A stretch of DNA of 64,000 bases from an uncultured Burkholderiales bacterium (GCA_964488915.1 CAZAWU010000001.1:2749-66748); one strand, 5' to 3'; positions 31,059 through 51,800 are shown, numbered from the stretch's first letter. The notes: a model not told the origin generated them from the letters alone. A program made the numbers and translations.

Positions 31059-31128
31059 TACTAAAGATAGTATCAACTCAAGAATAAGATTCACATTTAT
31101 TTTCCATATTTTACTATAGGGGGTAACC

Positions 31129-32463: not shown

Positions 32464-32466
32464 CCC

Positions 32467-34269
32467 ATGAGCAATCTCATCGAAGTGCGCGTGCCGGACA
32501 TCGGCGACTTCAAAGACGTCGAAGTCATCGAAGTGCTGGTCAAATCGGGCGACGTGATCAAACCGGAAGATTCGCTTATCGCATTGGAATCCGACAAGGC
32601 GACTATGGAAGTCCCGGCACCGGCCGGCGGCACCGTGAAGGACTTGAAGATCAAGGTCGGCGACAAGGTTTCGCAAGGCTCGCTTATCCTGATGCTGGAA
32701 GCGGGAGCGGCGGCTACGCCGAGCGCATTGCGCGCGCCAGCACCCCCAACTGCTGCTTCAGCGGCTGCGCCGACAGCTCCAACGAGCGCCGCCACGCCGC
32801 CGAAACAAACTTCGGGGGCCGATATCACCACTGAGGTCGTCGTGCTCGGCGCCGGGCCGGGCGGCTATACCGCCGCGTTTCGCGCGGCCGATCTCGGCAA
32901 GCAAGTTACGCTAATTGAGCGCTACGCGGCGCTCGGCGGCGTTTGTCTCAATGTCGGCTGTATTCCATCCAAGGCGTTGCTCCACGTCGCGAAAGTGCTC
33001 ACCGAGGCGGAAGTCGCCGCCGAACACGGCGTCGAATTCGGCAAACCCAAGATCGATTTCGGCAAAGTGCAAGGGTGGAAAACTTCCGTCGTCGAAAAGC
33101 ACACCAAAGGACTCACCGGGCTTGCCAAGCAGCGCAAGATCACTGTGGTTCACGGCACGGCGACGTTTGTGAACTCACATCAGGTACAAGTGCAAACCAG
33201 CGAAGGCAACCGGACGATCGGCTTCCAGCACGCCATCATCGCCGCCGGTTCGCAAGCCTTTAAGCTACCCGGTTTGCCGTGGGGCGATGCGCGCTTGCTC
33301 GACTCCACCGATGCGCTCGCGCTGAAAGTAATTCCTAAACGCATGCTCATCATCGGCGGCGGCATCATCGGCTTGGAAATGGCCACGGTTTACGATGCAC
33401 TCGGTAGCAAGATCAGCGTCGTGGAGTTGATGGACAATCTCATTCCGGGCTGCGACCCCGATCTGGTGCGCCCTCTCGCGCGCCGCATCGGCAAACGCTA
33501 CGAGCAGATCCTGCTCAAAACCAAGGTCACCAAAATCGAAGCTAAGCCGGAAGGCCTACTCGCCCACTTTGAAGGCGCCCAGGCCTCGGATGCGGCGCCC
33601 CAACCGCAACTGTTCGATGCCGTGCTGGTTGCGGTCGGTCGTCGGCCTAACGGCAAGGCGATCGGCGCCGAAGCCGCCGGCGTAAAGGTCGACGAACGCG
33701 GTTACATCCCGGTCGACAAGCAGCAGCGCACCAACATCGGCCATATCTTTGCCATCGGCGATATCGTCGGCGAGCCGATGCTGGCGCACAAGGCCACACA
33801 CGAAGCGAAAGTCGCCGCGGAAGTCATCGCTGGGCACAAGGCTGCGTTTGACGCCCGAGCGATTCCCAACGTTGCCTATACCGATCCCGAAGTAGCCTGG
33901 ATGGGAATGAGCGAAACCGAAGCCAAGAAGCGCGCAACGCAAATCGAAGTGGCCGTGTTTCCTTGGACCGCCAGCGGACGCGCGTCCGGCCAAGCGCGCA
34001 ATGAGGGTGTGACCAAGCTGATCTTCGAGGCGGGCACGCGGCGCCTGCTGGGCGCTGGGATGGTCGGACCAAACGCCGGCGAGCTTATCGCGGAAGCGGT
34101 GTTAGCCCTGGAAATGGGCGCCGACGCCGCGGACTTGAGTTTGACGATTCACCCACACCCGACGTTGTCGGAAACGCTGGGTTTGGCGGCCGAAATGGCC
34201 GAGGGCAGCATTACCGATTTGCTCCCCGCAAAGAAAACCGCGCTTGAATCCACGTTCAAGCGCGGTTGA
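32467..34269 (+). CDS. lpdA: Dihydrolipoyl dehydrogenase (E3) with N-terminal lipoyl domain
   Basis: 600 aa. N-terminal lipoyl domain ([13 protein letters not shown]), then GAGPGGY, redox-active [14 protein letters not shown]-terminal HPHPTLSE. Confidence 0.9.
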
Positions 34270-36882: not shown

Positions 36883-37656
36883 ATGCGCGGATCGATAGTC
36901 GTTTGTATTGCGCTCGCCATTGGGCTGAGCAGCCGCATCGTCTTGGCAAAAGAATGCAGCGCGAAAAGCGGTGTGCAGAGCACCGCTTTGCTCGAGCTCT
37001 ACACTTCTGAAGGCTGCAATAGTTGCCCGCCTGCCGATGCTTGGGTTAACGAACTGGAGAAACGCGGCGTTGGCAGGGGGCGCGTCGTGCCGCTCGCGCT
37101 GCACGTCGACTATTGGGACTACATCGGTTGGAAGGACCGCTTCGCGCAGCCGCAGTTCACGCAGCGCCAACAGTTGATCTCGCGCCGCAATACGCTAAAC
37201 ACGATTTTCACGCCGCAACTCGTGCTCAACGGCGTAACCATGCGCCGTTGGGGTGACGACAGCAAACTCGCCACCGCGCTCGATCTCATACAATCCGGCA
37301 AGCCGCGCGCCGATATCGGCCTGAGTTTGCGCGAAACCCGCGCCGATCGCCTCGCGATCGAAGCCGGCGTGACGCTGCACGACCCGAACGCGCGCACGAA
37401 CAGCGCGCTCTATCTCGCGGTATACGAGAACGGCCTTTCCAGCGAGGTGCGCGCGGGCGAAAACAGCGGGGTCACGCTGCGCCACAACTACGTGGTGCGC
37501 GCATGGCTCGGTCCGCTGCCGGTCGACGCAACCGCGGCGCGCGAAATCGATCTGTCGCACGACTGGCGCAAACAGAATCTTGGCGTGGCCGCCTTCGTGG
37601 AAGACCACGATACCGGGGCCATCCTACAGGCGCTGGCTTTGCCTCTTTGCCGTTGA
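36883..37656 (+). CDS. DUF1223 domain-containing secreted protein
   Basis: Trimmed to ATG 36883 (signal MRGSIVVCIALAIGLSSRIVLA). ELYTSEGCNSCPPADAW is the hallmark DUF1223 CxxC segment. Confidence 0.8.
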   Translation: MRGSIVVCIALAIGLSSRIVLAKECSAKSGVQSTALLELYTSEGCNSCPPADAWVNELEKRGVGRGRVVPLALHVDYWDYIGWKDRFAQPQFTQRQQLISRRNTLNTIFTPQLVLNGVTMRRWGDDSKLATALDLIQSGKPRADIGLSLRETRADRLAIEAGVTLHDPNARTNSALYLAVYENGLSSEVRAGENSGVTLRHNYVVRAWLGPLPVDATAAREIDLSHDWRKQNLGVAAFVEDHDTGAILQALALPLCR

Positions 37657-37741
37657 GTTTGCTAGATACTGCTTTAGGGATTCTCTTTAGAATGCAATTC
37701 TAAGGGATTCTCGTGGTTATTCAGCCGCCAGTATTGCTCAC

Positions 37742-38668
37742 TTAAGCCTGATTATCTTTGCGTGACGCGCGCTTGGCCTGCGCCGTTGCGCTCGACCCTG
37801 CCGTCCACCACAGCTGCAGTAGACCGATTGCGATCAACAGCATGCCTATCGCCTCGAAACGGTTTGGGCGTTCGCCAAACTGCAGCCATGCGAATATGAC
37901 CGCGAGTGCCGGGATAGCGAGCGTGTTCAGCGTAGCAACATTCGCGGGCAGCCGATTGATGATGTAGGTCCAAAGCAACCAGGCGAGTGCGGTGCCCAAC
38001 ACACCGAGAAAAACCACCGCCGCCCAGAACTGCGGAGTCCATTCGACGGCACGTTCCGGCACAATCCACGCAAGCAACACCAACAGCGGCGCGCCCAGCA
38101 ACATTTGCCAGGCGATCAAGGCGATGGCGTCCATGCGCTGCAATTCGCCACGAAAGCGCTTCAACACGATGGTGCCGATGGCCCAACTCAGCCCCGAGCA
38201 CGTCGCAAGACCGGCACTCGCAAGCTTATCGCCCAGCTCCCACGGTTGCGCCACAAAAACGAGGCCGGCAAACGCCGTGCCCACAGCCAGCCATTGCAGG
38301 CCGCGCACGCGCTCGCCCAAGAATGGCCACGACAGCAGCACCACCCAAAACGGCATGGTGAAGTTGAGCACCGAAACGCGTCCAACGCCGCCAAGCGACA
38401 GCGCCCACAAGGTCAGCAGGATGAACAGCGTGGACTGAAACAGAGCCAGTAGCGCCACCGGTAGCGGCGCGCGCAAACGCGCGTCACGGCGCGTCACGAT
38501 CACCACCGCGAACAAGCACGCGGCAGCCACGCAGGTGCGCAGCGCGGCGAAAAAGAACGGCCCAGAATAATGCAACGCGTACTTCATCGCGATCCAGGCG
38601 TAGCCCCAAATTAAGCACAGCAGAATGAGCGCCGAAAGCGCGCGGCGGTCGGCGGCTGGCTCGGTCAC
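37742..38668 (-). CDS. DMT-superfamily (EamA) transporter
   Basis: 308 aa, about 10 hydrophobic segments, two EamA-like halves. Confidence 0.85.
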   Translation of the reverse strand: MTEPAADRRALSALILLCLIWGYAWIAMKYALHYSGPFFFAALRTCVAAACLFAVVIVTRRDARLRAPLPVALLALFQSTLFILLTLWALSLGGVGRVSVLNFTMPFWVVLLSWPFLGERVRGLQWLAVGTAFAGLVFVAQPWELGDKLASAGLATCSGLSWAIGTIVLKRFRGELQRMDAIALIAWQMLLGAPLLVLLAWIVPERAVEWTPQFWAAVVFLGVLGTALAWLLWTYIINRLPANVATLNTLAIPALAVIFAWLQFGERPNRFEAIGMLLIAIGLLQLWWTAGSSATAQAKRASRKDNQA

Positions 38669-38677
38669 GAGCGGAGG

Positions 38678-39565
38678 TTATTTTGCGGCACGCCAGGCGT
38701 ACGGATTGGGCTCACCGGGCGGGCGCGTACGGAAGCGTTTGTGAATCCAGAAGTACTGTTCCGGCATCTCCAGCGCGCGCTCTTCGATAAAGGCATTCAT
38801 GCGGCGCGTATCAGCAGCGACGTCCTCGCTGGGAAAATTTTCCCAAGCAGGATAAAACCGCACCACATACCCGCGCGCCGCAGGCAACTGTTCGGTGACG
38901 CACGGCACCACCACGGCAGCGGTCATCTTGGCGAAACGCGATAGCACCGGCACGGTGGCGGCCGGCACATTAAAAAACGGCACGAAGATCGACTCTTCGG
39001 CGCCAAAATCGCCGTCCGGCAGCAAGTACAGCGGCGTGCCCTGCTTCAGCGCGCGCAACGCGGGGCGCAAGCTATCCTGACGCGCGAAGACTTCTGTCAA
39101 TCCGAAGCGTGTGCGCGCGTGCTTGAGCAAACGATCGAGAAACGCATTCTTCTGGCGGCTGTATACCGCGGCGCCGCGATGCTCGGTGGAAAGACGCACG
39201 CCGCCGAAATCGAGCCCGACAAAGTGCGGCGTGAAGCAGATCAACGGCTGCTTGCGCTGCGCATAAGGCAGCGCGTGTTCGAGCCCCTCGACGCGCACCA
39301 GCTTTTGGATCCGCTCTTTCGAGCCCCACCAGAGGATACCGAGAGCAAGCGCACTCTGCCCGAGCGCGCGAAAATGCCGCCGCGCGATGCGTCGGCGCTC
39401 GGTTTCGCTCAAGTGCGGAAAGCATAGCCGCAAATTGATGCGCGTGGTGCGGCCCTGCCCCGCAATGTAGAGCAGCATCCCGAGCGTCTGCCCCAGCACC
39501 GCGACGACCGGAAACGGCAGCAGGTGCAGCAGCCAAAGCAGGAATATGCCGATGCGCGTGAGCAT
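38678..39565 (-). CDS. Lipid A biosynthesis late acyltransferase (LpxL/HtrB family)
   Basis: 295 aa. N-terminal TM, RINLRLCFP, TPHFVGLD, and overall LpxL-like length and order. Confidence 0.8.
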   Translation of the reverse strand: MLTRIGIFLLWLLHLLPFPVVAVLGQTLGMLLYIAGQGRTTRINLRLCFPHLSETERRRIARRHFRALGQSALALGILWWGSKERIQKLVRVEGLEHALPYAQRKQPLICFTPHFVGLDFGGVRLSTEHRGAAVYSRQKNAFLDRLLKHARTRFGLTEVFARQDSLRPALRALKQGTPLYLLPDGDFGAEESIFVPFFNVPAATVPVLSRFAKMTAAVVVPCVTEQLPAARGYVVRFYPAWENFPSEDVAADTRRMNAFIEERALEMPEQYFWIHKRFRTRPPGEPNPYAWRAAK

Positions 39566-39683
39566 CTGGTGGAATAGGTAGGAAGACGCCGCGCCGCAGG
39601 CGGGCGGAGCAAAAGCACGAGTTTACCGAATCGGCGCCCGCTGAGGCCCGCGAAGTGCGCCGGGTCTGGTTTACACTGGCACG

Positions 39684-40130
39684 GTGAACGCCACAAACAT
39701 CGCGGTCGAAGCCGTCAGCTGGGACAGCGCACAGGTCGAACTGCGCGCGATTCGCACCGAAGTCTTCGTGCACGAGCAGCAGGTCGCGCAGGCGCAGGAA
39801 TGGGACGGTTTGGACGAGCACGCGCTGCATGTGCTGGCGCGCGCCGGCGTTGAAGCCGTCGGCACCGGGCGCTTGCTGCTGGAAGCCGGCAACATCGCCC
39901 GCATCGGCCGCATGGCCGTGCGCAAAGCGTGGCGCGGCCAAGGTATCGGCGCGGCGCTACTGCGCAAGCTGATCGCGCTTGCGCGTGAGCGCGGCTGCGA
40001 AGAAGCGTACCTGCACGCGCAAACGCATGCGCTCGCCTTCTACGCGCGCCACGGGTTCGTGGCCCAAGGCGATGAGTTTTGGGAAGCAGACATTCTCCAC
40101 CGCAGCATGCGCTCGCAACTGCGCCGCTAG
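39684..40130 (+). CDS. GNAT-family N-acetyltransferase
   Basis: 148 aa. RMAVRKAWRGQGIGAALLRKLI (acetyl-CoA binding Q/RxxGxG/A), FYARHGF. Confidence 0.85.
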   Translation: MNATNIAVEAVSWDSAQVELRAIRTEVFVHEQQVAQAQEWDGLDEHALHVLARAGVEAVGTGRLLLEAGNIARIGRMAVRKAWRGQGIGAALLRKLIALARERGCEEAYLHAQTHALAFYARHGFVAQGDEFWEADILHRSMRSQLRR

Positions 40131-40146
40131 CGCTTTGATCTAATAC

Positions 40147-41166
40147 TCACTCCAGAGTATAAGGAAGAGTGAGAATAGACAGGATTGAACCGATCGTACT
40201 ACCTAGATGTATGGGCTGCGCCAAGGTTTCGACCTGGAGCACGGCGAGCGCATCGTTGCCACCCTCGGGTGCCGGCGCCGCATTGACGATCATGCCGCAG
40301 CTTTGCTCACCGAATGCCGCGCCGAATAGTTCATCGCCCGGCGCAGCTCTATCCACGTGCACCAGATACATGCGGCGCTTGAGTTTGCCCAAGTAGTGCG
40401 TGCGCGCCACGATCTCTTGACCCGGATAGCAGCCCTTGCCGTAGGTCAGCGCGCCGAAGCGGTCGAAATTTGCCATCTGCGGCACGAACTGCTCTTGCGT
40501 GGGCTGCGTGATCCAAGGAATGCCGGCGCGGATGTCGAGCCAACGCCAAGCCGGCGTGCCCACCGGGCGCGCGTGCTGAGCGAGCGCATCCCAACATGAC
40601 GGCGCCTTCTCGACCGGCAGCACGATCTCGTAGCGCAGAGCGTCCAACTTGATGAGCGTCGCTGCACCGTGCGAGGTGACACCGAGCGCTTGATCGGCAG
40701 GCGCGCCGAGCGCCGCGCGCACGATCTCGCCGGCTTGCGGCCCAGCCAACCCCAAACGCACGAAAGTGTCGCTGGCATCGGCCAGCTTCACTTTCGAGCG
40801 CAAGATGTACATGCTTAAGCGCTTCTGCATCACTTCGCGCAGTTGCGCATCGAGCTGCAACAAGAATCCTTCGCCGCGCGGCCAAAGCAGGAAATTGGCG
40901 AGCAAGCGGCCCTTCGGCGAACAGTAGCCCGCGTAAGCGGCTTGCGCGGCGCTCAACTTGCTCACATCGCTGGTGAGTTGATTGTTGAGAAACTCACGCG
41001 CATCCGCCCCGCTCGCTTCCAGCAAGGCGAAGTGCGACAGATCCGCTACGATCGTAGCGGCCTGCGCAGCGCGCAATTCGTCTTCCTGTGCGCCGAAATG
41101 CGTGACTACGCCCGCCTCGATGCGCGCTGCACGTGCCGTGAGATGCTCTTGCCAGGAAATGTGCAC
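40147..41166 (-). CDS. ygfZ: Folate-binding Fe-S cluster repair / tRNA-modifying protein YgfZ
   Basis: 339 aa. Hallmark KGCYPGQEIVARTHYLGKLKRRMY near the C-terminal third. Confidence 0.85.
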   Translation of the reverse strand: MHISWQEHLTARAARIEAGVVTHFGAQEDELRAAQAATIVADLSHFALLEASGADAREFLNNQLTSDVSKLSAAQAAYAGYCSPKGRLLANFLLWPRGEGFLLQLDAQLREVMQKRLSMYILRSKVKLADASDTFVRLGLAGPQAGEIVRAALGAPADQALGVTSHGAATLIKLDALRYEIVLPVEKAPSCWDALAQHARPVGTPAWRWLDIRAGIPWITQPTQEQFVPQMANFDRFGALTYGKGCYPGQEIVARTHYLGKLKRRMYLVHVDRAAPGDELFGAAFGEQSCGMIVNAAPAPEGGNDALAVLQVETLAQPIHLGSTIGSILSILTLPYTLE

Positions 41167-41219
41167 CGATATAATCGAGCGATTGGAATTCGCATTACCT
41201 TACGGGTTCCCCGGCGACT

Positions 41220-41720
41220 ATGCAATACGCTGCCGCGCCGCTGCTGCGGCTCGAATGGCAAGGCTCAAGGCGCTTGGCGTTGCTGCTTGGACTCGCACAC
41301 GCCCTTAGCGCGGCGGCGCTGCTCGCCGTGCCGCTGCCTGGCTGGAGCAAGCTGCTGGCGCTCATCGGTTTATCCGTTAGCGCTTTCTTTCATGTACACC
41401 GCGCGCTCAGTCCCGCTGCTGGCGCTCCTCTGTTCAGGTACTGGAGCGCGCGCCGCATCACCGCGCTGGAACTGAAAAACGGTGCTGCCCACGCCGCGCG
41501 CACGCTCGGTGGGCAGTGGCACGAAGTCAAGTTGCGCGCCGAATTGGCGACACCGATGCTCGCCATCGTCCGCGTGCGGCTCGACGGCCGGCGCTGGCCG
41601 GCATTCGTCGTGCTCATGCCGGACATGCTGCCTTCCGAAGACTTTCGGCGCTTGCTGGTTCGGCTGCGCTGGGACGATCTCGAGGCGAACCACGCACGCG
41701 CGAAGAAGACTGCTGCATAG
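41220..41720 (+). CDS. YgfX/CptA-like inner-membrane protein (DUF1434-like)
   Basis: 166 aa. LRLEWQGSRRLALLLGLAHALSAAALL, a second TM, and C-terminal VVLMPDMLPSEDFRRLLVRLRW parallel E. coli YgfX (..LRVSWRAQWLSLL.. / ..LAADSMDEAEWRDLRRILL). Sits next to ygfZ, as in E. coli. Confidence 0.55.
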   Translation: MQYAAAPLLRLEWQGSRRLALLLGLAHALSAAALLAVPLPGWSKLLALIGLSVSAFFHVHRALSPAAGAPLFRYWSARRITALELKNGAAHAARTLGGQWHEVKLRAELATPMLAIVRVRLDGRRWPAFVVLMPDMLPSEDFRRLLVRLRWDDLEANHARAKKTAA

Positions 41721-41749
41721 GGCTTCGCGTATAATGCGCGCTCCCGCCC

Positions 41750-44700
41750 ATGCCATCGATTCTTCTCCTTCAGGGCCAGCCCGCCCTGTCCGAGTTTCGC
41801 ATCCAAAAGCTGTTGAACACGCTGCGCGAAGCAGCGCCTGAGGTCCGCGGCCTCAGCGCGGAGTTTTGCTATTTCGCGCAGACGCAGCGTGCGCTCGAAG
41901 CGCGCGAAACAGCGTTGCTATGCACACTGCTCAGCGCGCGGGAGGACTCCAGTACGAACGATGGCGCGTTCTTATTAGTGGTGCCGCGTCTCGGCACGAT
42001 ATCACCGTGGTCCTCCAAAGCCACGGACATCGTGCGCCAAAGCGGTCTGGAAGCGGTGTTACGCGTCGAGCGCGGCGTACACTATCGCGTTGATGCGGCC
42101 CCGAAGGTTCTGACGCATCCGCAAATCGCCGCTGCGCTGCATGACCGCATGACGCAGTCAGTGGTCGACAACTGGCAAGAAGCGCAACGTCTGTTCGAAC
42201 AATTGCCACCGAAACCGCTGTCGACGGTTGCTTTGCTGGCTCGAGGACGCAGCGCGCTGGTCGAAGCAAACCAAACGCTCGGGCTGGCGCTGTCCGAAGA
42301 CGAAATCGACTACCTGCGCGACTACTTCACCGGCATCGGGCGCGATCCAACCGACGTGGAAATCACGATGTTCGCGCAAGCGAATTCCGAGCACTGCCGG
42401 CACAAAATTTTCAACGCACAATGGGTGGTGGACGGCGAGCAGCAACGGCAATCGCTGTTCCAGATGATCCGCCATACGCACCAAGCCAGCCCGCAGCGCA
42501 CCGTGATCGCCTACGCCGACAATGCCGCGGTGATGCAAGGCGCCGAGATCGAGCGCTTTTATCCGGATGCGAACGGCGCGTATCACTTCCAGCCGGCGCT
42601 GACGCATACGCTCATGAAGGTTGAGACGCATAACCATCCGACCGCGATCGCACCCGACCCCGGCGCCGCCACCGGTGCGGGCGGCGAGATCCGCGACGAA
42701 GGCGCGACCGGTCGCGGCGCGAAGCCGAAAGCCGGATTGGCCGGCTTTTCGGTGTCTAACCTCCGAATCCCGCAGTTGCCCCAGCCGTGGGAGCAGCACG
42801 ACTATGGCCGCCCGCGCCACATCGTTTCCGCGCTGCAGATCATGCTCGACGGGCCCATTGGCGCGGCAGCGTTTAACAACGAATTCGGCCGGCCCAATCT
42901 TGCAGGCTATTTCCGCACTTACGAGCAGGCCAACGGCGGGGTCATGCGCGGCTATCACAAGCCGATCATGCTCGCCGGTGGCATCGGCAATATCGACGCG
43001 CGCCACACTGCCAAACATGCGCTCGGGGCCGGCGCGCTTTTCATACAACTCGGCGGGCCGGGCATGCTGATTGGTATGGGCGGCGGCGCCGCGTCGAGCA
43101 TGGCCACAGGCGCCAATTTGGCCGATTTGGATTTCGATTCGGTGCAGCGCGCCAACGCCGAGATGCAACGGCGCGCGCAAGAGGTGATCGACCGTTGCTG
43201 GCAGTTGGGCGAGGCCAATCCGATTCTCTCGATTCACGATGTCGGCGCAGGTGGCCTATCGAACGCGCTGCCGGAGCTGGCGCACGGTGGCGAGGTCGGC
43301 GCCACTTTCGATTTGCGCGCGGTGCCGAGCGAAGAACCGGGTATGGCGCCGAAAGAGATCTGGTGCAACGAGTCGCAAGAGCGTTACGTGCTGGCGATTG
43401 CGCCCGAGAGTTTGGCGCGCTTTCGCGCGCTGTGCGAGCGTGAACGCTGTCCGTTCGCAGTTGTCGGCGTTGCACAAACCGAGCAGAGCCTGCGTGTTGA
43501 GGACCAGCACTTCGCCAATGTGCCGGTCGACATGGACTTGAACGTTTTGCTCGGCAAACCGCCGCGCATGACCCGAAGTTTCTCGCGCACGCGCACGCGC
43601 CCGGCGCCACTCGAACTTGCGGGTATCGACCTCAAAGAGGCGCTGTACCGCGTGCTGCGTCTGCCGAGCGTGGCAAGCAAGAGCTTTCTCGTTACCATCG
43701 GCGACCGCACCGTGGGCGGATTGACTGCGCGCGAGCAGATGGTCGGACCTTGGCAAGTGCCGGTGGCGGACGTGGCGGTCACTGCGCTCGGCTACCGCAC
43801 GAGTGTGGGCGAAGCGTTTGCGCTTGGCGAACGCACACCGCTCGCCTTGATCGACGCGCCCGCCTCGGGGCGCATGGCCGTGGGCGAAGCGATCACCAAC
43901 CTCGCCGCGGCCGATGTCGAGGACTTGAGCCACATCAAACTCTCTGCCAATTGGATGGCGGCGGCCGGTTCACCGGGGGAAGATCAAGCGCTGTTCGACA
44001 CGGTGCGCGCGGTTGCGCTGGAGCTGTGCCCGAACTTGGGCATCAGCATTCCGGTCGGCAAGGATTCGATGTCGATGCGCACTACTTGGCAGGACGGTGC
44101 GCAGAAGAAAGAAGTGGTTGCGCCGCTGTCATTGATCGCCTCTGCGTTCGCGCCGGTAGCTGACGTACGCCGCACGCTGACACCGCAATTGCGCACCGAC
44201 TGCGGCCCGACTGCGTTGGTGCTGGTCGATCTCGGCGAGGGCCGCAACCGTTTGGGCGGCTCGGCGCTCGCGCAGGTCTACGGCGAACTCGGCGATACAG
44301 CGCCGGACTTGGACGATGCGGCGAAGTTAAAGGGATTCTTCGAAGTGACTCGCACGCTGCGTCGCGCAGGCGAAATTCTCGCTTATCACGACCGCTCGGA
44401 CGGTGGCTTGGCCGCGACGGTGTGCGAGATGATGTTCGCCGCAAGGTGCGGGGTTTTGGTTGATACAGTCGATAGTGTGTCCCGATCAATCAATTTAGAG
44501 TTTATTTTCAGTGAAGAACTTGGTGCAGTACTCCAAATCAGGCAAGAGCGAACTGCATATGTCGTTGCAGAATACGCGCGGGCGGGCGTGCGCGCCGGTG
44601 TGATCGGCCACGTCACCAATGATGACTGCCTGACGCTCAAACACGCGGGCCGAACCCTGTTGCACGAAACGCGCACGGACTTGCAGCGCGCGTGGGCAGA

Positions 44701-45628
44701 GACTTCGTATCACATGCAAAAGCTGCGCGATAACCCCGCGTGTGCCCAGCAGGAATTCGATGCGCTGCTGCAAGCCGGCGACCCCGGCTTGAGCGTGGCG
44801 CTCACGTTTGGCTGGCCGCCACAGGCCGCAGCACCGGCTGCTGGCGGTGCACGAGCACGCGTGGCGGTGCTACGCGAACAGGGCGTCAACGGGCATGTCG
44901 AGATGGCGGCAGCGTTCGTCGCAGCAGGCTTCGAGGCCGTCGACGTCCACATGAGCGACATCATCGCCGGGCGCGTCGGTCTGGCAGGCTTTCAAGGGCT
45001 GGTCGCGTGCGGCGGTTTTTCTTACGGCGACGTGCTCGGTGCCGGCACCGGCTGGGCGAGCTCCATCCTCTATCACGCGCGCGCGCGCGACGAGTTCGAA
45101 CGGTTCTTCCGGCGCGAGAACACCCTCTCGCTCGGTGTATGCAACGGTTGCCAAATGATGAGCCAGTTGCGTGATCTGATTCCTGGCGCCGACTTTTGGC
45201 CGCACTTCGTACGCAACGAGTCGGAGCAGTTCGAGGCGCGCTTCGTCATGGTCGAGGTACTCGATACGCCCTCGGTATTTCTGCGCGGCATGGCCGGCTC
45301 GCGCTTGCCGGTAGTGGTTTCGCACGGTGAGGGACGCGCACAGTTCCGCGACGACGTGCGACGGCAGCAGGCGCGCGGCTACGCCAGCCTGCGCTTCGTC
45401 GATCACCAGGGTGCAACGGCGCAGCGCTACCCGTTCAACCCGAACGGCTCACCCGACGGCCTGACCGCCCTCACCAGCCGCGATGGACGTTGCACCATCA
45501 TGATGCCGCACCCGGAGCGGTGTTTGCGCACCTTGAATCTGTCGTGGCGCCCCCCCGAGAGCAGCTCCTGGGGCGAATACAGCCCTTGGCTGCAGATATT
45601 CCTCAACGCGCGCCACTGGCTCGCTTAG
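41750..45628 (+). CDS. purL: Phosphoribosylformylglycinamidine synthase (single-chain large form)
   Basis: 1292 aa. [27 protein letters not shown], and a C-terminal glutaminase with GVCNGCQMM. Confidence 0.97.
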
Positions 45629-46006
45629 GCGAATCTCCAACCCTGCGAGTGCAGGCCCAGGGCTTGCTTAGGACCTGGGCACTAGCGTCTGAGGAGTCGT
45701 TTCGCAAGCTCGCTTTGCACGCCAGGGCACTTGTTGCCCCGTGGCGTCATCTTGCGCGCGGCTACTCGACAGAAAATGCGTGAATGTGAAGCAGCCTAAT
45801 CTTTGTTTCAATTGAGCTATTGTCGCTTCTGGTAAAGAAGCGGAGGTATGAAGGTCGATGGTTTCAGCAAGGCAAGCGAGGCGGGAGCGCCAGGATGGCC
45901 GCGTCAGCTGCGCGAGCAGCCAAGGTCTTCACGTTGCCATATGGCCTAGTCTAGACGAGGACATGACTCAGCCAGCGCTCGAGCTTCTTCGCATGCGGCG
46001 CCCGCT

Positions 46007-47512
46007 TTGGAACCTGCCATGAGCGCGGCTCTTGCCACGAGAAATCAGCAACGCGACAACGCTGTACGCGACGCAGCTGAAAAACCGCCGCAAAGCGCAA
46101 GTTCCTCCGCGCCCGCGATGGAATCGAACGCGCCGGCGCCTCAACCAAGCGCACCACTAATCCTGCAACTGATTGCAACCGCGCTGGACCACGAGAAGTT
46201 CGCTAACGCAGCCGCGGCTCTATCCAGCGAACTCACGACGCAACTTCGCTGTGAGCGCGTGAGTATCGGCATCGTCAACGAAGGGTACATGGAGGTCGCC
46301 GCGCTTTCTCATGCCGGCACACTCGCTCAAGACGAGGCTTTGCTGCGCGATCTCAGCTCGGCGATGGACGAGGCGGCGACGCAAGGCGCGCTGATCCAGT
46401 ACCCACCAGACTCGGCCAATAAGCCGCGGATCACGCTGCAACACGCCGAGCTTGCGAAGCGGCAACAAGTTGCCGCCATCGTAACTACCCCGCTGGTCTC
46501 CGAAACACGTTGTTTCGGTGCGATCTGTTACGAGTTCGCTGAGCAGCATCAGGTGGACTTGGCCACGCTTAGACTGGTCGAGGACATCGCGGCCTTTCTC
46601 GCTCCACCGCTCGCATTGAAGCATGCCTACGAACGCGCCAGCGTCGATCGAGCGTTGGGCAAAGCGCGCCGCATAGCAGGAAAGCTGCTCGGCGAGGGTC
46701 ATGTGGGATTCAAGCTCGGTGCCGCAGCAACCGCTTTGCTAGTGGCTGGCCTTGCTTTCGTGCCGGCTCCGTTCTACGTGAGCGCCGAGGCGCGTGTCGA
46801 AGGTGCCGTTCAGCGTGCGTTGGTCGCTCCCACGGACGGCTACTTGAAGGAAGCGCACGTGCGCCCATCCGACCAAGTCAAAGCCGGCCAGTTGCTGGCG
46901 GAGCTGGCCGACGAAGATCTGAAGTTGGGCCGGCGCAAGTGGGAAAGCGAGTACGCGCAGGCTGAAAGCGCGTACGGCGAAGCGCTGGCTAAACAAGACC
47001 GCGCCCAAGTGGTCATGCAGCAAGCGCGCATGGAAGAAGCGCGGGCGCAACTCGAACTCACTCAGCAAGACATCGCGCGCTCGCAAATCGTGGCGCCGTT
47101 CGATGGTGTCATCATCAAGGGCGATTTGACGCAAGCCCTCGGTGCGCCGGTCAAACGCGGCGACCCGTTGCTCACGATCGCACCGAGTGACGTCTATCGC
47201 GTGATCATGGAAGTGGACGAACGCGATATCGCCTACTTGCAAACGGGCCTCCACGGAGCGCTGGCACTGAGTGCGCTGCCAGGCAAGCCAATGGAAATCG
47301 AAATCGTGCGTGTCACACCAGTCGCACGCAGCGACCAAGGGCGCCACTACTTCGAAGTGGAAGCTACGTTGATCAAAGAGCCCGCTGCGCACATGCGTCC
47401 CGGATTGCGCGGCGTTGCCAAAGTATCGGTGGGCGAGCGCTCCGTGCTATCGAATTGGACGCGCCGCACCGTGAACTCGATCCGACTATTGCTCTGGTCT
47501 TGGTTCGGCTGA
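46007..47512 (+). CDS. GAF-domain / single-TM / HlyD-type membrane-fusion protein
   Basis: 501 aa. GAF-like region (LRCERVSIGIVNEGYMEVAALSH...AIVTTPLVSETRCFGAICYEF), TM FKLGAAATALLVAGLAFVPAPFYV, MFP body with lipoyl-like halves and a coiled coil. Start is TTG 46007 or ATG 46019. Confidence 0.8.
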   Translation: MEPAMSAALATRNQQRDNAVRDAAEKPPQSASSSAPAMESNAPAPQPSAPLILQLIATALDHEKFANAAAALSSELTTQLRCERVSIGIVNEGYMEVAALSHAGTLAQDEALLRDLSSAMDEAATQGALIQYPPDSANKPRITLQHAELAKRQQVAAIVTTPLVSETRCFGAICYEFAEQHQVDLATLRLVEDIAAFLAPPLALKHAYERASVDRALGKARRIAGKLLGEGHVGFKLGAAATALLVAGLAFVPAPFYVSAEARVEGAVQRALVAPTDGYLKEAHVRPSDQVKAGQLLAELADEDLKLGRRKWESEYAQAESAYGEALAKQDRAQVVMQQARMEEARAQLELTQQDIARSQIVAPFDGVIIKGDLTQALGAPVKRGDPLLTIAPSDVYRVIMEVDERDIAYLQTGLHGALALSALPGKPMEIEIVRVTPVARSDQGRHYFEVEATLIKEPAAHMRPGLRGVAKVSVGERSVLSNWTRRTVNSIRLLLWSWFG

Positions 47513-47516
47513 TTCC

Positions 47517-49664
47517 ATGCGCGAATCGCTTTACAGTCCCAATTGGTACCGCATCGCGCATTTAAAACCTAAGCTGCACCTGCACGTACGTGTCGAGCGC
47601 CAGCTCTATCGCCATCAAACCTGGTATTTGCTGCGCGATAGTACTTCCGGCAGGCATCACCGGATAAACGAACTCGCGTATCAATTCGTCGGCCGTCTGG
47701 ATGGCCGTCTCACTGTGGAGCAGATCTGGAATGTGCTCGCCGAAGAATTGGGTGATCGGCGCCCAACCCAAGACGAGATCGTTCAAACGCTCATCCAATT
47801 AGCAGAATTGGAGTTGATTCAGCCGGACCGCAATCCCGAATTCTCCGAAGTGTTTCAGCGGCGCGAGGAACGTGCGCGCAAGCGCTGGAGTAACGACGTC
47901 AACCCACTGTCGTTCAAAGTGCGCTTGTTCGATCCGAGCGACTTCCTGGCACGCTTTATTCGCGTTGCAAAACCACTATTCAGCTTGCCGTTCCTATGCG
48001 CGTGGATCGCACTCGTTGCAGCCGCGTTACTCGCCGCACGCGGCAATTGGGATGTGATCGTAGCTCACACCGCGACGGACGTCTCGACGCCGCGCTTCCT
48101 GCTACTGACTTGGCTGTGCTACCCGTTCATCAAACTGGTGCATGAATTTGCGCACGCATTCGCCGTAAAGGTTCTTGGTGGACACGTACGCGAAATGGGC
48201 GTGCGCGTTCTGTTTCTGACTCCGGTACCCTACGTCGATGCGAGCGCAGCAAACGGCTTGCGCGGCAAGTGGCAGCGCATCATGGTCAGCGTCGCCGGCA
48301 TCATGGCCGAGGTGCTCCTGGCGGCGCTGGCCTTGTTCGTATGGATATCGATTGAGAACGGGTTGCTCAAAGACGTCGCGTTCGTCACGATGCTCATCGG
48401 CGGCATATCGACGGTCCTGTTCAACGGCAATCCCTTACTGCGTTTCGACGGCTATTTCGCGCTCGCCGATCTGCTTGAATTACCGAATCTTGCACAGCGC
48501 AGCAATGCCTACTGGATGTACCTTGCGCAGCGACATGTTTGCCGATTGCGATCCGCGCCCTGCCCCGCCGCGAACTTGACCGAGCGGCTCTGGTTCCTCG
48601 CCTATGGAGCAAGCGCGCTAGTCTATCGGTGGCTGGTGTCGATCTGGATCGTTCTATGGATTAGCGGCAAGTCGGCCTTCCTCGCTATTGCGTTGAGTGT
48701 TTGGTTCATGTTCACGCTTATCGTGAAGCCTGCGGCTGCGGTCGTCGAGTTCCTCTTGCTAGCACCGCAGTTGGCTCGAATCCGGGTGCAGGCGATTGCC
48801 ATTGGCGCCTGCGCTCTTGCGGCAATCGTTGCTGTAATCCTGTTTCTTCCAGTGCCTTCTTCCACCTTAGCCCAAGGAATCGTGTGGCTGCCTGAGCAAG
48901 CCCGCGTACGAACACAAACGGACGGCTTTGTCGAGGAAATCCTCGCCCAAGATGGCAGCTTTGTAAAAGCGGGCGAAACGATAGCCCTGCTGAAGGCCCC
49001 TGACCTCGAAGCAAAGCGCAGCGAGCTAACCGCCAAGCTTGAAAGCCTAGAAGCTCAATACCAACGCGCACTAAGCGCCAGCCCCGGCGAAGCGACGGTC
49101 GCAGAGCAAGCGCGCGATCAAGCTCAAGCCGAATTGTCACTAGTCGAGCAGCGTCTCGGCGCATTGCGCATAGCTAGCCCTGCCGAAGGCAGGCTGGTGA
49201 TGCCGCACCAGAACGATTTGCAGGACGGCTTTGTGTCGCGCGGCACAGCGCTTGCCCACCTCATCACTGATTCGACACTGGAAGTTCGCCTGGCTGTGCC
49301 GCACAGCGACGCCGCACTAGTGCGCGAACGACACGACCGGATCGAGGTGCGGCTTGCTGAGCATCCCGAGCGCGCCTTGGCCGCACATTGGTTGCGTGAA
49401 GTGCCTGCCGCGACTCACGTCCTACCGGCGGCGGCACTAAGCGAGTCTTACGGAGGCAGCATCACGACCGATCCGCAAGACGCAGATGCATTGCTTACCC
49501 TGGAACCGGTCTTTGTATTTGACGTAAGTGTTCCTTCCAAGCGCTTTCAGCGAGCCGGCGCGCGCGCTTGGGTGCGTATCGACCACGGCAGCGAGCCCTT
49601 GGCCGCCCAGTGGGCTCGGAGTGTGCGCCGTATCGTCTTGCGCCACTTCACGGTCCAATCTTAG
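47517..49664 (+). CDS. PqqD-like N-domain / M50 site-2-protease membrane core / C-terminal HlyD-like domain fusion protein
   Basis: 715 aa. N-domain YQFVGRLDGRLTVEQIWNVLAEELG...IVQTLIQLAELELI. HExxH in LVHEFAHAFAV. Second M50 motif NGNPLLRFDGY. At least 6 TM segments. C-terminal coiled coil plus barrel (IALLKAPDLEAKRSELTAKLESLEAQYQ...IASPAEGRLV). Confidence 0.8.
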   Translation: MRESLYSPNWYRIAHLKPKLHLHVRVERQLYRHQTWYLLRDSTSGRHHRINELAYQFVGRLDGRLTVEQIWNVLAEELGDRRPTQDEIVQTLIQLAELELIQPDRNPEFSEVFQRREERARKRWSNDVNPLSFKVRLFDPSDFLARFIRVAKPLFSLPFLCAWIALVAAALLAARGNWDVIVAHTATDVSTPRFLLLTWLCYPFIKLVHEFAHAFAVKVLGGHVREMGVRVLFLTPVPYVDASAANGLRGKWQRIMVSVAGIMAEVLLAALALFVWISIENGLLKDVAFVTMLIGGISTVLFNGNPLLRFDGYFALADLLELPNLAQRSNAYWMYLAQRHVCRLRSAPCPAANLTERLWFLAYGASALVYRWLVSIWIVLWISGKSAFLAIALSVWFMFTLIVKPAAAVVEFLLLAPQLARIRVQAIAIGACALAAIVAVILFLPVPSSTLAQGIVWLPEQARVRTQTDGFVEEILAQDGSFVKAGETIALLKAPDLEAKRSELTAKLESLEAQYQRALSASPGEATVAEQARDQAQAELSLVEQRLGALRIASPAEGRLVMPHQNDLQDGFVSRGTALAHLITDSTLEVRLAVPHSDAALVRERHDRIEVRLAEHPERALAAHWLREVPAATHVLPAAALSESYGGSITTDPQDADALLTLEPVFVFDVSVPSKRFQRAGARAWVRIDHGSEPLAAQWARSVRRIVLRHFTVQS

Positions 49665-49674
49665 ACGTATCTGT

Positions 49675-51654
49675 ATGCGCACAGCGACGCTTCCGATCCC
49701 CGGAATCGTGTTCGGCACCTATCCCGAAAAACGCTCACCCGCCGTGACCGGCACGCGCGCGCTAGCTGCGCTACTGCGTCCCAAGCTGTTCGGTGATCGC
49801 TTGCTACGAGCGAAGTTCAGCTCTGTACGCGCCTTGATGGCCTCGCACTCCGACAACAGCCTTGACGCCATTCCCGCATTCAGAAGCAAGCTACATGCTA
49901 CTCGCGCACAATTGGGTCGCGACGGCTTCACACCTGCGCTGGTCGCGGATAGCTTTATCCTAGTCAGCAACGCGATCCACCGGCGATTGGGCTACCACGT
50001 GTTCGACACACAGCTCTACGCAGCTTGGATCATGCTGCACAATCGCTTGGCTGAAATGGCGACAGGCGAAGGCAAGACCGTTGCCGCCTCGCTCGCAGCG
50101 GCAACGGCCGCATTGGCCGGCATACCCGTGCACGTCATAACCGCCAACGACTACCTGGTGCAGCGCGACGCCGAACTACTGCGGCCAGTCTACGAAACCA
50201 TAGGACTCAGTGTCGGCTACGTAACTCAAATAATGGACGAGCAGCAGCGGCGCGAAGCATATGCATGCGACGTGACCTACTGCACGGCCAAGGAGTTGGT
50301 ATTCGACTATCTGAGAGACGGTCTTGGACGGCGAGCCCACGCGAGCGATCTGCACGCGCGCGCGGCACGACTGAGTTCCAACAGCCACCGCGCGCCGGTG
50401 CTACGCGGCCTTTGCATGGCAGTGATCGACGAAGCAGATAGCATCTTGATCGATGAAGCCCGCACGCCGCTAATACTGGCGCAGGCCCTCAACAACGAAG
50501 CACAGTCGAATCTCTATCGCGAAGCGCTTTCAGTAGCGGCCGAGTTACAAGCGTGGCAGCACTACCGATTGGACGAAACCCATCAGACGGCGGAACTCAC
50601 CGAAGCTGGCGTCATTCAATTGGAGCAGCGTTGCGGCGCCTTAACCGGTGGGTGGCGTGACCGGCGCTGGCGTCACGAAATGGTTACGCTCGCGCTGGCG
50701 GTTCAGCATCTGTTCGTGCGTGATAGGCACTACATCGTGCGCGACGGCAAAGTGATACTCGTGGATCAAACAACCGGACGTGCCGCAGCGGGGCGGATCT
50801 TCTCGCGCGGCATCCATCAGATGATCGAACTCAAAGAGGGCTGTGTCGTCACAGGTGAGCAGCGCACGATTGCTCAGATCACTTACCAACGCTTCTTCCC
50901 ACGCTACCATCGCTTATGCGGGATGAGCGGCACGCTGCGTGAAGCAGGCACTGAGCTGCAGAGTGTCTACGGACTTGACACCAGCGTCGTGCCGTTGCGC
51001 CAAACCAGCAAACGCCGCGTTTGGCCCATGCGCGTCTTTGCGAATGCGGGAGCAAAATGGACAGCAGTTGTGGACCGTATCGCCGAGTTGCACCGATCTG
51101 GCCGACCCGTATTGATCGGCACCGATTCCGTCGCCGACTCCGAGCAGCTTGCGCAGCGCTTAGCCAATGTCGGTCTGGCAGCACAAGTTCTAAACGCGCG
51201 CAACGACGGAACGGAAGCGACGATCGTCGCGCGCGCAGGCGAAGCCGGCGCCATCACGGTTGCGACTAACATGGCGGGCCGCGGCACCGACATCGTACTC
51301 GGCAAAGGCGTGGCTGAGCTAGGCGGCTTGCACGTCATCTGCTGTCAGCGCAACTCGGCGCGACGAATCGACCGTCAGTTGCAGGGTCGCTGCGCGCGGC
51401 AAGGTGATCCAGGCAGCACCGAAACGATCTTGACGCTCGATCAGGGACGGGTCCACAAGTACCTGCCTACCCACGTTCGGCGCAGTCTCGCGAATCCTCA
51501 CAACACGAAAGCGCTGCCCTCGATGCTGGGCGGCGCGCTCATCGCACTCCCGCAACGCATCGAAGAACTTCGCCACCAATTCGAGCGCTGGCAACTGCTG
51601 CGTCGCGACATCCTGATTGATCGTCGGCTCTCATTCGCCGGTCGCGGCGAGTAA
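49675..51654 (+). CDS. Truncated SecA-like DEAD-motor ATPase
   Basis: Trimmed to ATG 49675, 10 nt after the upstream stop. LAEMATGEGKT (Walker A), HVITANDYLVQRDA, VIDEADSILIDEARTPLILA, HYIVRDGKVILVDQTTGR, GMSGT, TNMAGRGTDI and RRIDRQLQGRCARQGDPGS follow the SecA NBD1/PPXD/NBD2 order. Only about 78 aa follow the last motif. Confidence 0.85.
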   Translation: MRTATLPIPGIVFGTYPEKRSPAVTGTRALAALLRPKLFGDRLLRAKFSSVRALMASHSDNSLDAIPAFRSKLHATRAQLGRDGFTPALVADSFILVSNAIHRRLGYHVFDTQLYAAWIMLHNRLAEMATGEGKTVAASLAAATAALAGIPVHVITANDYLVQRDAELLRPVYETIGLSVGYVTQIMDEQQRREAYACDVTYCTAKELVFDYLRDGLGRRAHASDLHARAARLSSNSHRAPVLRGLCMAVIDEADSILIDEARTPLILAQALNNEAQSNLYREALSVAAELQAWQHYRLDETHQTAELTEAGVIQLEQRCGALTGGWRDRRWRHEMVTLALAVQHLFVRDRHYIVRDGKVILVDQTTGRAAAGRIFSRGIHQMIELKEGCVVTGEQRTIAQITYQRFFPRYHRLCGMSGTLREAGTELQSVYGLDTSVVPLRQTSKRRVWPMRVFANAGAKWTAVVDRIAELHRSGRPVLIGTDSVADSEQLAQRLANVGLAAQVLNARNDGTEATIVARAGEAGAITVATNMAGRGTDIVLGKGVAELGGLHVICCQRNSARRIDRQLQGRCARQGDPGSTETILTLDQGRVHKYLPTHVRRSLANPHNTKALPSMLGGALIALPQRIEELRHQFERWQLLRRDILIDRRLSFAGRGE

Positions 51655-51724
51655 CTGCCACACTGAAGCCTACTTTACCGAGCCGACCGCGCCGCGAAAG
51701 CAGGCCGACCCGGATGGGTTGGGA

Positions 51725-51800
51725 TGGCGTCCCCACGGGGATTCGAACCCCGGTTACCGCCGTGAAAGGGCGATGTCCTAGGCCTCTAGACGATGGGGAC
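51725..51800 (-). tRNA. tRNA-Glu (anticodon UUC)
   Basis: Reverse complement GTCCCCATCGTCTAGAGGCCTAGGACATCGCCCTTTCACGGCGGTAACCGGGGTTCGAATCCCCGTGGGGACGCCA. 76 nt, cloverleaf with loop CUUUCAC, encoded CCA. Near-identical in pattern to E. coli tRNA-Glu. Confidence 0.95.

Follow-up and report, generated by a model that had tools for sequence, protein, structure and literature searches.

Organization of the operon

The window analysed here, a 64,000-nt stretch of DNA from an uncultured Burkholderiales bacterium (GCA_964488915.1 CAZAWU010000001.1:2749-66748), carries a three-gene operon encoding a GAF-HlyD membrane-fusion protein (MFP), a protein that joins a PqqD-like domain, an M50/S2P-like metalloprotease and a second HlyD-type MFP, and a 659-aa SecA-like ATPase, which is the main subject of this study (Table 1). 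SecA is usually seen as a motor devoted to the SecYEG channel. The first-pass annotation of this DNA had described the third gene as a SecA-type motor that keeps its ATPase core, lacks the C-terminal half engaging SecY and works with a different partner. The three genes are separated by gaps of 4 and 10 nt, with purL on one side of the operon and tRNA/gltX on the other. No ABC, RND or MFS transporter was found in the operon or among its recurrent neighbours in related loci, the SecA-like protein being the sole NTPase, and no canonical secA was found elsewhere in the window. A scan of the operon for promoters and terminators returned counts at the level of shuffled sequence.

The SecA-like gene starts at ATG 49675, 10 nt past the stop of the upstream gene, and alignments with homologues (655-665 aa) begin at residues 1-4. 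An upstream GTG (49528) was rejected as the start, as it would create a 137-nt overlap with the upstream gene and homologues begin at the ATG.

Table 1. Predicted features of the three-gene operon and its downstream boundary (window coordinates)
Feature	Residues	Position (nt)	Strand	Evidence or remark
Gene 1, GAF-HlyD membrane-fusion protein, 501 aa		46007..47512	+	Pfam GAF 2.9e-5, HlyD_3 4.2e-19, HlyD_D23 5.4e-15
Gene 1, cytoplasmic GAF domain	72-199	46220-46603	+	
Gene 1, single transmembrane segment	240-258	46724-46780	+	One hydrophobic segment, followed by the periplasmic HlyD/MFP part
Gene 2, PqqD-like + M50/S2P-like metalloprotease + HlyD/MFP, 715 aa		47517..49664	+	
Gene 2, PqqD-like domain (RiPP recognition element type)	17-102	47565-47822	+	
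Gene 2, transmembrane region	157-443	47985-48845	+	
Gene 2, HEFAH	209-213	48141-48155	+	
Gene 2, NPLLRFDG	305-312	48429-48452	+	
Gene 2, MFP periplasmic part	445-715		+	
Gene 3, SecA-like ATPase, 659 aa		49675..51654	+	NBD1 + PPXD + NBD2 + one scaffold-type helix
Gene 3, family-specific N-terminal motif PGIVFGTYPE	9-18	49699..49728	+	P9, G14, Y16 and P17 >=90% conserved in the 33-sequence alignment A2
Gene 3, Walker A MATGEGKT	128-135	50056..50079	+	T130-K134 invariant in alignment A2
Gene 3, DEAD box (Walker B)	252-255	50428..50439	+	D252, E253 and D255 invariant in alignment A2
Gene 3, PPXD	277-385	50503..50829	+	Pfam SecA_PP_bind 3.7e-25, profile positions 2-110 of 110
Gene 3, NBD2 including TNMAGRGTDI		51028..51435	+	Pfam P-loop_SecA 2.7e-47
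Gene 3, motif VI RRIDRQLQGRCARQGDPGS	563-581	51361-51417	+	Within NBD2
Gene 3, single long C-terminal helix	616-654	51520..51636	+	AlphaFold2 secondary structure; corresponds to the first part of the SecA helical scaffold
Gene 3, extreme C-terminal motif LSFAGRGE (L-[SA]-F-[SA]-G-x-x-E)		51628..51651	+	In representatives down to 37% identity
tRNA-Glu(UUC)		51725..51800	-	ARAGORN; downstream boundary of the operon

Domain architecture of the SecA-like protein

All motor motifs quoted in the first-pass annotation were located in the SecA-like open reading frame (ORF), and nucleotide-binding domain 1 (NBD1), the preprotein cross-linking domain (PPXD) inserted in it and NBD2 are intact. Pfam SecA_DEAD matches the protein at 2e-86; SecA_SW (PF07516), which represents the helical scaffold and the wing with the two-helix finger/IRA1, gave no match at E<=0.01. 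Motif VI ends (...GDPGS) at residue 581 of 659, leaving the 78 residues previously counted behind the last motif, and the protein terminates in ...RRLSFAGRGE, where the Cys/His cluster of a Zn/SecB-binding tail was not found. A phmmer search against PDB sequences aligned residues 68-645 to residues 40-600 of Bacillus subtilis SecA at ~35% identity, and it paired the segment ALPQRIEEL...QLLRRD with the start of the scaffold helix, as had been proposed.

An AlphaFold2 (AF2) model built on 33 family members (predicted local distance difference test, pLDDT, 87.5; predicted template modelling score, pTM, 0.87) contains, past NBD2, only two short helices (591-605), one 39-residue helix (616-654) and a disordered tip (residues 655-659, pLDDT <50). 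Profile search, alignment and structure prediction hence revealed no complete scaffold, wing or finger, and the first-pass annotation was right that the protein has no two-helix finger, no wing and no C-terminal tail. Its statement that the SecY-engaging half is lost stands only in part, as the finger, wing and tail are gone, whereas the PPXD and the long scaffold helix, which in canonical SecA-SecY complexes reportedly also contact SecY, are retained. Strong Foldseek matches of the model comprise SecA and SecA2 only. The best superposition is with SecY-bound, substrate-engaged SecA (6itc_A, query TM-score (TMq) 0.84, root-mean-square deviation 2.9 Å; 5eul_A, 0.83), indicating that the polypeptide clamp is structurally complete. 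The extreme C-terminal LSFAGRGE motif is a candidate docking peptide.

The SecA and SecA2 models of NCBIfam score the protein at 371-522 bits versus cut-offs of 725-1493, with alignments ending near model position 470-560 of ~790, about two thirds along. It falls below the cut-offs of both housekeeping SecA equivalogs (TIGR00963, 521.8 bits versus 800; NF009538, 512.1 versus 814), and none of the SecA2 cut-offs is reached (TIGR03714, 416.6/930; TIGR04221, 438.7/725; TIGR04397, 485.6/1085; NF012136, 371.3/1100). Because the scaffold, wing and finger are missing and the scores lie under these cut-offs, the protein is, judged by sequence, a SecA homologue outside housekeeping SecA and all SecA2 families.

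A natively short SecA-like clade

The abbreviated length of the protein is shared by a large set of homologues. A HMMER scan covered 1.84 billion cluster representatives (50%-identity clusters), and the best 150 examined are 508-739 aa long, nearly all 640-690 aa, with 39-51% identity and scores of 445-606 bits, whereas B. subtilis SecA reaches 372 bits. At 90% identity, the 120 nearest clusters each measure ~655-665 aa, and none contains PF07516. Where canonical SecA has its own N-terminus, these proteins carry a private motif, PG(I/V)xxGxYPE(R/K), seen in representatives to ~40% identity, and they end in a second private motif, L(S/A)F(S/A)GxxE; both are absent from canonical SecA. The motor motifs are retained in nearly all of the 72 genome-locus homologues (GEGKT in 70, DE[AV]DS in 71, GRGTDI in 70 and motif VI in 68). 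These comparisons show that the protein belongs to a large clade of uniform length, marked by private motifs at both termini, whose members end natively within the scaffold helix; the case for the distinctness of the clade lies in the score gap, the length and these motifs. The short stand-alone SecA-like clade is defined here as proteins of ~640-690 aa consisting of NBD1, PPXD, NBD2 and one helix, bearing PGxxxGxYPE and L[SA]F[SA]GxxE and encoded after a GAF-HlyD and a PqqD-M50-HlyD gene; the window gene is a member.

The protein is ~240 aa shorter than housekeeping SecA, as would be expected of a decaying or truncated secA pseudogene copy. This explanation, to which we assign practically no chance, is refuted by the data, in line with the first-pass annotation. 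The length is kept across the best 150 of the 50%-identity clusters and the terminal motifs are conserved. Relative to its closest relative (locus L004), the gene has a proportion of nonsynonymous differences (pN) of 0.17 against a saturated synonymous proportion (pS) of 0.75, values showing that the coding sequence is under purifying selection; the pN of the upstream gene 2 is 0.21. A frameshifted secA remainder has no room because tRNA-Glu begins after a gap of 70 nt, and the same tRNA-Glu junction occurs in L004, with 100% identity across 76 nt. The window from 36967 to 51800 is collinear with L004:1-15236 (contig CADEHE010000024.1 of a metagenome-assembled genome) from purL through the three-gene operon to tRNA-Glu at 68-75% nucleotide identity. 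L004 is the nearest relative and has the same reduced three-gene arrangement, indicating that this form is stable in the lineage.

A few clade members, including L085:1604-3616, have degenerate motifs (e.g., MEPSTGKT, VDGADH and ANIAWRDIDI) and are still encoded between the M50-HlyD gene and a small HlyD gene. These may be catalytically dead paralogues.

Conservation of the three-gene module

Related loci were collected with an alignment of gene 2 (M50-HlyD) only, taking one genome per species, and 80 loci were kept of 183 relatives. At least five bacterial classes are represented (Burkholderiales and other Betaproteobacteria, Gammaproteobacteria, Alphaproteobacteria, Desulfobacterota, Geobacteraceae and Myxococcales), with Zoogloea oleivorans, Z. 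oryzae, Z. ramigera, Z. dura, Aquincola agrisoli, Nitrosospira sp. Nsp1 and a plasmid of Methylosinus sporium among the cultured carriers. The order GAF-HlyD, M50-HlyD, SecA-like, with the genes adjacent and on one strand, is found in 76 of the 80 loci. The SecA-like gene is present in 77, in one of these 6 kb downstream; among the remaining three, one contig stops just past gene 2 and two have no SecA-like gene in the flank. Three seeming truncations are assembly frameshifts. The GAF-HlyD gene lies directly upstream of the M50-HlyD gene in 79/82 loci, and contigs reached via the SecA-like protein have an adjoining M50-HlyD and/or GAF-HlyD gene in 5/5 cases. The gene order across these loci shows that the SecA-like gene almost invariably stands directly after the genes of two inner-membrane MFPs. 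The earlier suggestion that the motor has a different partner, the M50/MFP proteins being the candidates, is strongly supported by this synteny, and we infer the partnership from it together with the 4-10 nt gene spacing.

The same evidence bears on whether the protein is an accessory SecA2-like factor that still serves SecYEG for a subset of substrates, with neighbours that are unrelated or only substrates. It is a bona fide SecA homologue that keeps the PPXD and part of the scaffold helix, and its AF2 model is nearest to the SecY-bound conformation, features that suit such a role. However, the two-helix finger, the wing domain and the IRA1 region are missing, all four SecA2 models remain far below cut-off, the carriers are Gram-negative and there is no SecY2/Asp or glycosyltransferase context. 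Tight, phylum-spanning synteny with MFP genes argues instead for a dedicated partner, making a SecYEG-serving role highly improbable.

The most divergent member examined (L084:1-7908, 37% identity), which is among the five loci reached via the SecA-like protein, has a permuted operon consisting of a partial gene, the SecA-like gene, an OEP/TolC gene, an HlyD gene with Cds6_C and a GAF-HlyD gene. The GAF-HlyD gene was confirmed by BLAST, and the partial upstream gene had no BLAST match to M50-HlyD.

In addition, the module is repeatedly accompanied by PAS histidine kinases, response regulators and proteins with GGDEF/EAL domains (ORF cluster 8, 18 loci; e.g., L001:14823-19179, L071:19406-22397 and L062:17435-19438), which hints at signal-controlled deployment.

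The two candidate membrane-fusion protein partners

The best PDB sequence match of the gene 1 protein is LipC, an adaptor of a type I secretion system (T1SS) (5nen, 3.3e-9). The gene 2 protein matches the NCBIfam models daptide_HExxH (1.4e-43; 149.5 bits, cut-off 300) and RND_mfp (2.6e-13), and the YydH/LiaK model (NF058609) at 32.3 bits versus a cut-off of 225. The match of its cytoplasmic domain to PqqD is weak when the window protein is searched alone (1e-3). Among 20 diverse family members, 19 match PqqD (best 8.4e-9), and a search with the family profile recovers the PqqD structure 3g2b (2e-4 and 5.4e-5). HExxH is present in all 82 gene 2 homologues and NxxPxxxxDG is conserved, suggesting that the polytopic M50 protease is probably active. 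A family AF2 model built with database proteins (pLDDT 83.3) shows an alpha-hairpin at 495-548 in the MFP domain, and its top Foldseek matches are MexA, MacA and AcrA over ~270 columns.

The composition of gene 2 also suits a cassette for the maturation and export of a bacteriocin or another ribosomally synthesized and post-translationally modified peptide (RiPP), in which the PqqD-like domain would bind the leader of a small precursor, the M50 protease would remove that leader (daptide/YydF-type) and the MFPs and SecA-like motor would export the peptide. PqqD-like domains are characteristic of leader recognition in RiPP pathways, gene 2 scores best with the NCBIfam models of the daptide and YydH/LiaK RiPP metalloproteases and of an NHLP bacteriocin HlyD, and the family bears the JGI name 'putative peptide zinc metalloprotease'. 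The likeness to M50/HExxH RiPP leader peptidases (daptide MpaP-type, NF041824; YydH/LiaK) extends to the N-terminal 400 residues of gene 2, which align to the daptide model and open with the PqqD-like domain, and to the zinc-site motifs HExxH and NxxPxxxxDG in transmembrane helices. Unlike these peptidases, gene 2 is fused to an MFP and has no RiPP neighbours, its scores are far under the family cut-offs (149.5 vs 300), and the associated substrates are apparently giant proteins. Beside the window operon, whose flanks are purL and tRNA/gltX, there is no LEPR-type precursor-like ORF and no modification enzyme (radical SAM, YcaO, etc.), and in other loci the genes that recur beside the module encode proteins of 900 to >2600 aa rather than peptides. 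A RiPP cassette is therefore improbable.

Putative cargo and additional components in related loci

All ORFs of the related loci were clustered, and frequencies were counted over the 50 loci with >=5 kb downstream. Directly after the SecA-like gene, 40 of these 50 loci have a fourth gene for a ~300-aa HlyD/RND_mfp protein with a Sec signal peptide, and 26 have downstream a fifth gene for a giant DUF4347 protein (median 1587 aa, up to >2600); four have neither. In support of the link to these giant proteins, a reverse search of metagenome contigs with the cargo N-terminus recovered all three core genes in 19 of the 28 loci with >=8 kb upstream. A TolC-family gene is found in eight related genome loci, as well as in the divergent operon L084. 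The PqqD-like domain, the fourth-gene MFP, TolC and the giant LEPR-XLL/DUF4347 proteins of related loci would extend the first-pass finding to a five- to six-component system.

At the N-terminus, the giant proteins have a short basic stretch and then (E/D)E(I/L)EPRILYSAD, the leader containing EEIEPRILYSAD, mostly without a signal-peptide-like hydrophobic core. The N-terminal motif scores 19.5 and 17.1 bits with the LEPR-XLL model NF012209 (cut-off 17). Behind it lie the DUF4347 domain (4e-53) and cadherin and Big_9 repeats. In an alignment of cargo N-termini (A4; L003, L007, L019, L072, etc.), H120, H124-G125 and Y165-G166-C167 of DUF4347 are invariant, a His...Cys pattern that we take to resemble that of clan-CD (caspase/CHAT-like) peptidases. 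The sole solved DUF4347 relative is a weak match to PDB 9qpe chain G, and this structure was rejected as a relative of the system because it is a Pseudomonas aeruginosa Hcp-loaded type VI secretion system effector complex unrelated to the module.

Where the 3' end of the gene is on the contig, the giant proteins also have a hydrophobic C-terminal motif, ...VGYVxWLLRGGxLLSSLLSSLPAWxxxDPLPVL, followed by a charged tail. In 21 loci, 6-56 residues separate the motif from the stop; no NCBIfam model matched it. Complete giant proteins carrying it occur in L001, L007, L011, L046, L063, L072, L098, L113, L115, L140, L142 and other loci; in L007:9458-16345, for example, it falls within the last ~110 aa. 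It resembles a sorting or anchor domain that has not been catalogued, and the M50 protease might act on it.

These observations raise the alternative that the operon performs ATP-dependent regulated intramembrane proteolysis rather than secretion. The motor would then be an unfoldase or feeder to the M50 site, the GAF domain a sensor and the MFPs scaffolds, and the substrate would be the C-terminal anchor of the giant protein or, where cargo is absent, an unrelated regulator. Conservation of both zinc-site motifs, which makes an active protease probable, fits this alternative, as do the TM-like motif at the cargo C-terminus (a plausible S2P substrate), the lack of cargo, outer-membrane factor (OMF) and fourth-gene MFP in the window operon, and the recurrence of PAS histidine kinase and GGDEF/EAL genes nearby. 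However, three different MFP types with TolC-docking architecture, together with TolC genes in some of the operons, are difficult to account for unless there is an envelope-spanning conduit, and extracellular-type adhesin repeats without an ordinary signal peptide need some exporter. Proteolysis in place of secretion is thus rather unlikely, and it may overlap with the export model described below, as processing and export could both occur.

A putative SecA-driven export module

The explanation that we favour, and regard as probable from the comparative evidence, is that the SecA-like protein acts outside the general Sec pathway, as the cytoplasmic ATPase of a module that is dedicated to export and processing, spans the envelope and resembles a T1SS in which a SecA-type motor replaces the ABC transporter. 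In the proposed mechanism, the PqqD-like domain would recognise an N-terminal cargo leader, as RiPP recognition elements do, and the motor would be tethered to the cytoplasmic domains of both membrane proteins, possibly via its conserved termini. The motor would clamp the unfolded chain and drive it in the N-to-C direction across the inner membrane, either at the M50/MFP assembly or through it. The periplasmic MFP domains, supplemented in most relatives by a third MFP that is soluble, would join a TolC-family channel. The M50 protease would trim the cargo at its leader or at its conserved C-terminal hydrophobic anchor, and the GAF domain would gate the process. The cargo in related loci would be the giant cadherin/Ig-repeat protein with LEPR-XLL, DUF4347 and ...SLLSSLPAW..DPLPVL.

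Several observations weigh against this export model. No DUF4347, LEPR-like motif or cargo C-terminal motif was found in the window in any frame, nor was a fourth-gene MFP or TolC. The window holds the three core genes only; therefore, the cargo, the fourth-gene MFP and the OMF would have to be encoded elsewhere, or the lineage runs a reduced system. Only about half of the well-covered loci have an adjacent DUF4347 gene. The loci of the reverse search are a biased sample, since they come from the best 80 relatives of a cargo that is itself adjacent to the system. L056 and L069 have two MFP genes and no SecA-like gene in the flank, and the clade representatives P0241 and P0262 have degenerate ATPase motifs. 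M50/S2P proteases are not known to serve as protein-conducting channels. Finally, docking to SecY is unlikely yet conceivable because the PPXD and most of the scaffold helix are retained.

A more far-reaching form of the export model, plausible but a little short of probable, is that the three genes constitute the core of an unrecognised Gram-negative secretion class. A SecA-type motor seated on an S2P-like/MFP complex would drive giant adhesins N-to-C via an MFP/TolC conduit, the LEPR-XLL leader would be read by the PqqD-like domain, and the C-terminal anchor (...SLLSSLPAW..DPLPVL) would hold the cargo in the inner membrane until it is cut by the M50 protease under GAF control. If true, anchor and cleavage would retain and release the cargo by a logic like that of sortase or LapG but with other components, and a function would be given to the LEPR-XLL signal and to DUF4347 proteins.

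Comparison with known systems

The SecA-like protein shares homologous NBD1, PPXD and NBD2 and all motor motifs with housekeeping SecA of Escherichia coli and B. subtilis. It differs in stopping in the first scaffold helix, in its terminal motifs and in being encoded in an operon with MFP/M50 genes rather than alone. SecA-N68, an engineered C-terminal truncation of E. coli SecA (5k9t; target TM-score (TMt) 0.68 among the Foldseek matches), likewise combines the DEAD motor with the PPXD; its ATPase is reportedly deregulated and it is said to be unable to translocate. Unlike this laboratory fragment, the SecA-like protein is natural and conserved, with ~40 extra helical residues and a conserved tail, and it is presumably regulated by other partners. 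Accessory SecA2 proteins (mycobacterial, Listeria/Bacillus, SecA2-SecY2) are also second SecA paralogues for a cargo subset, and 6sxh and 4uaq are among the top fold matches. However, SecA2 keeps the scaffold and the two-helix finger and acts on SecY/SecY2, whereas the SecA-like protein has neither a complete scaffold nor a finger, and no SecY2/Asp context.

The surrounding module recalls T1SS and tripartite efflux systems (HlyB-HlyD-TolC, MacAB-TolC and LipBCD), with which it shares inner-membrane-anchored MFPs with alpha-hairpin, lipoyl and beta-barrel domains (two in the operon), TolC-family genes in some related operons and giant repeat-rich cargo without an ordinary signal peptide. TolC is commonly encoded elsewhere in T1SS. 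Unlike these systems, the module has no ABC/RND/MFS transporter and has two or three different MFPs, one of them fused to M50 and PqqD-like domains. The putative cargo is marked by LEPR-XLL at its N-terminus and by a hydrophobic motif at its C-terminus, rather than by the C-terminal RTX-type signal of T1SS.

In the literature searched, no description was found of the stand-alone SecA-like clade, of its MFP/M50 partners or of a function of LEPR-XLL/DUF4347 in this context. Mentions of 'SecA-like' proteins from the Aravind lab were rejected as precedent, as they concern other architectures. SecA_DEAD + PPXD modules without scaffold and wing occur in giant proteins of Omnitrophota and Actinobacteria, and West-Roberts et al. 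(bioRxiv 10.1101/2023.11.21.568195) propose that they export these proteins without the involvement of canonical SecA. These modules are the closest published precedent found. However, they lie inside >30,000-aa proteins with their own transmembrane regions, whereas here the motor is a stand-alone protein of 660 aa, encoded in a conserved operon with MFP/M50 partners, and the giant cargo is a separate gene.

There is a substantial chance that a SecA paralogue combined with a tripartite MFP/OMF exporter, and thus furnished with a new engine, represents a distinct class of secretion system. A clade that spans several phyla, lacks the SecY-inserting elements and is genetically tied to MFPs and an intramembrane protease would mean that evolution has turned the SecA motor to another export route. 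Should the model be correct, tripartite envelope-spanning machines would have a fourth type of energiser besides ABC, RND and MFS, and the exit of widespread giant surface proteins (LEPR-XLL/DUF4347) that have no signal peptide would be explained. Database names for these proteins are generic or wrong, and thousands of entries are mis-described as 'preprotein translocase subunit SecA', 'DEAD/DEAH box helicase' or even 'prepilin peptidase'.

Other features of the window

The window also encodes, at 23192-25543 (-), a 783-aa GAF + MshEN + T2SSE (type II/IV secretion ATPase) protein, a further GAF-regulated ATPase of the secretion type, with no evident tie to the operon. An 886-aa ORF at 28398 was considered as a secA candidate and rejected, as it is pyruvate dehydrogenase E1. 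It belongs to a pyruvate dehydrogenase complex cluster at 28398-34269 (+), an ordinary set of housekeeping genes, which encodes E1 (886 aa), E2 (444 aa) and E3 (600 aa), the last with an extra N-terminal lipoyl domain.

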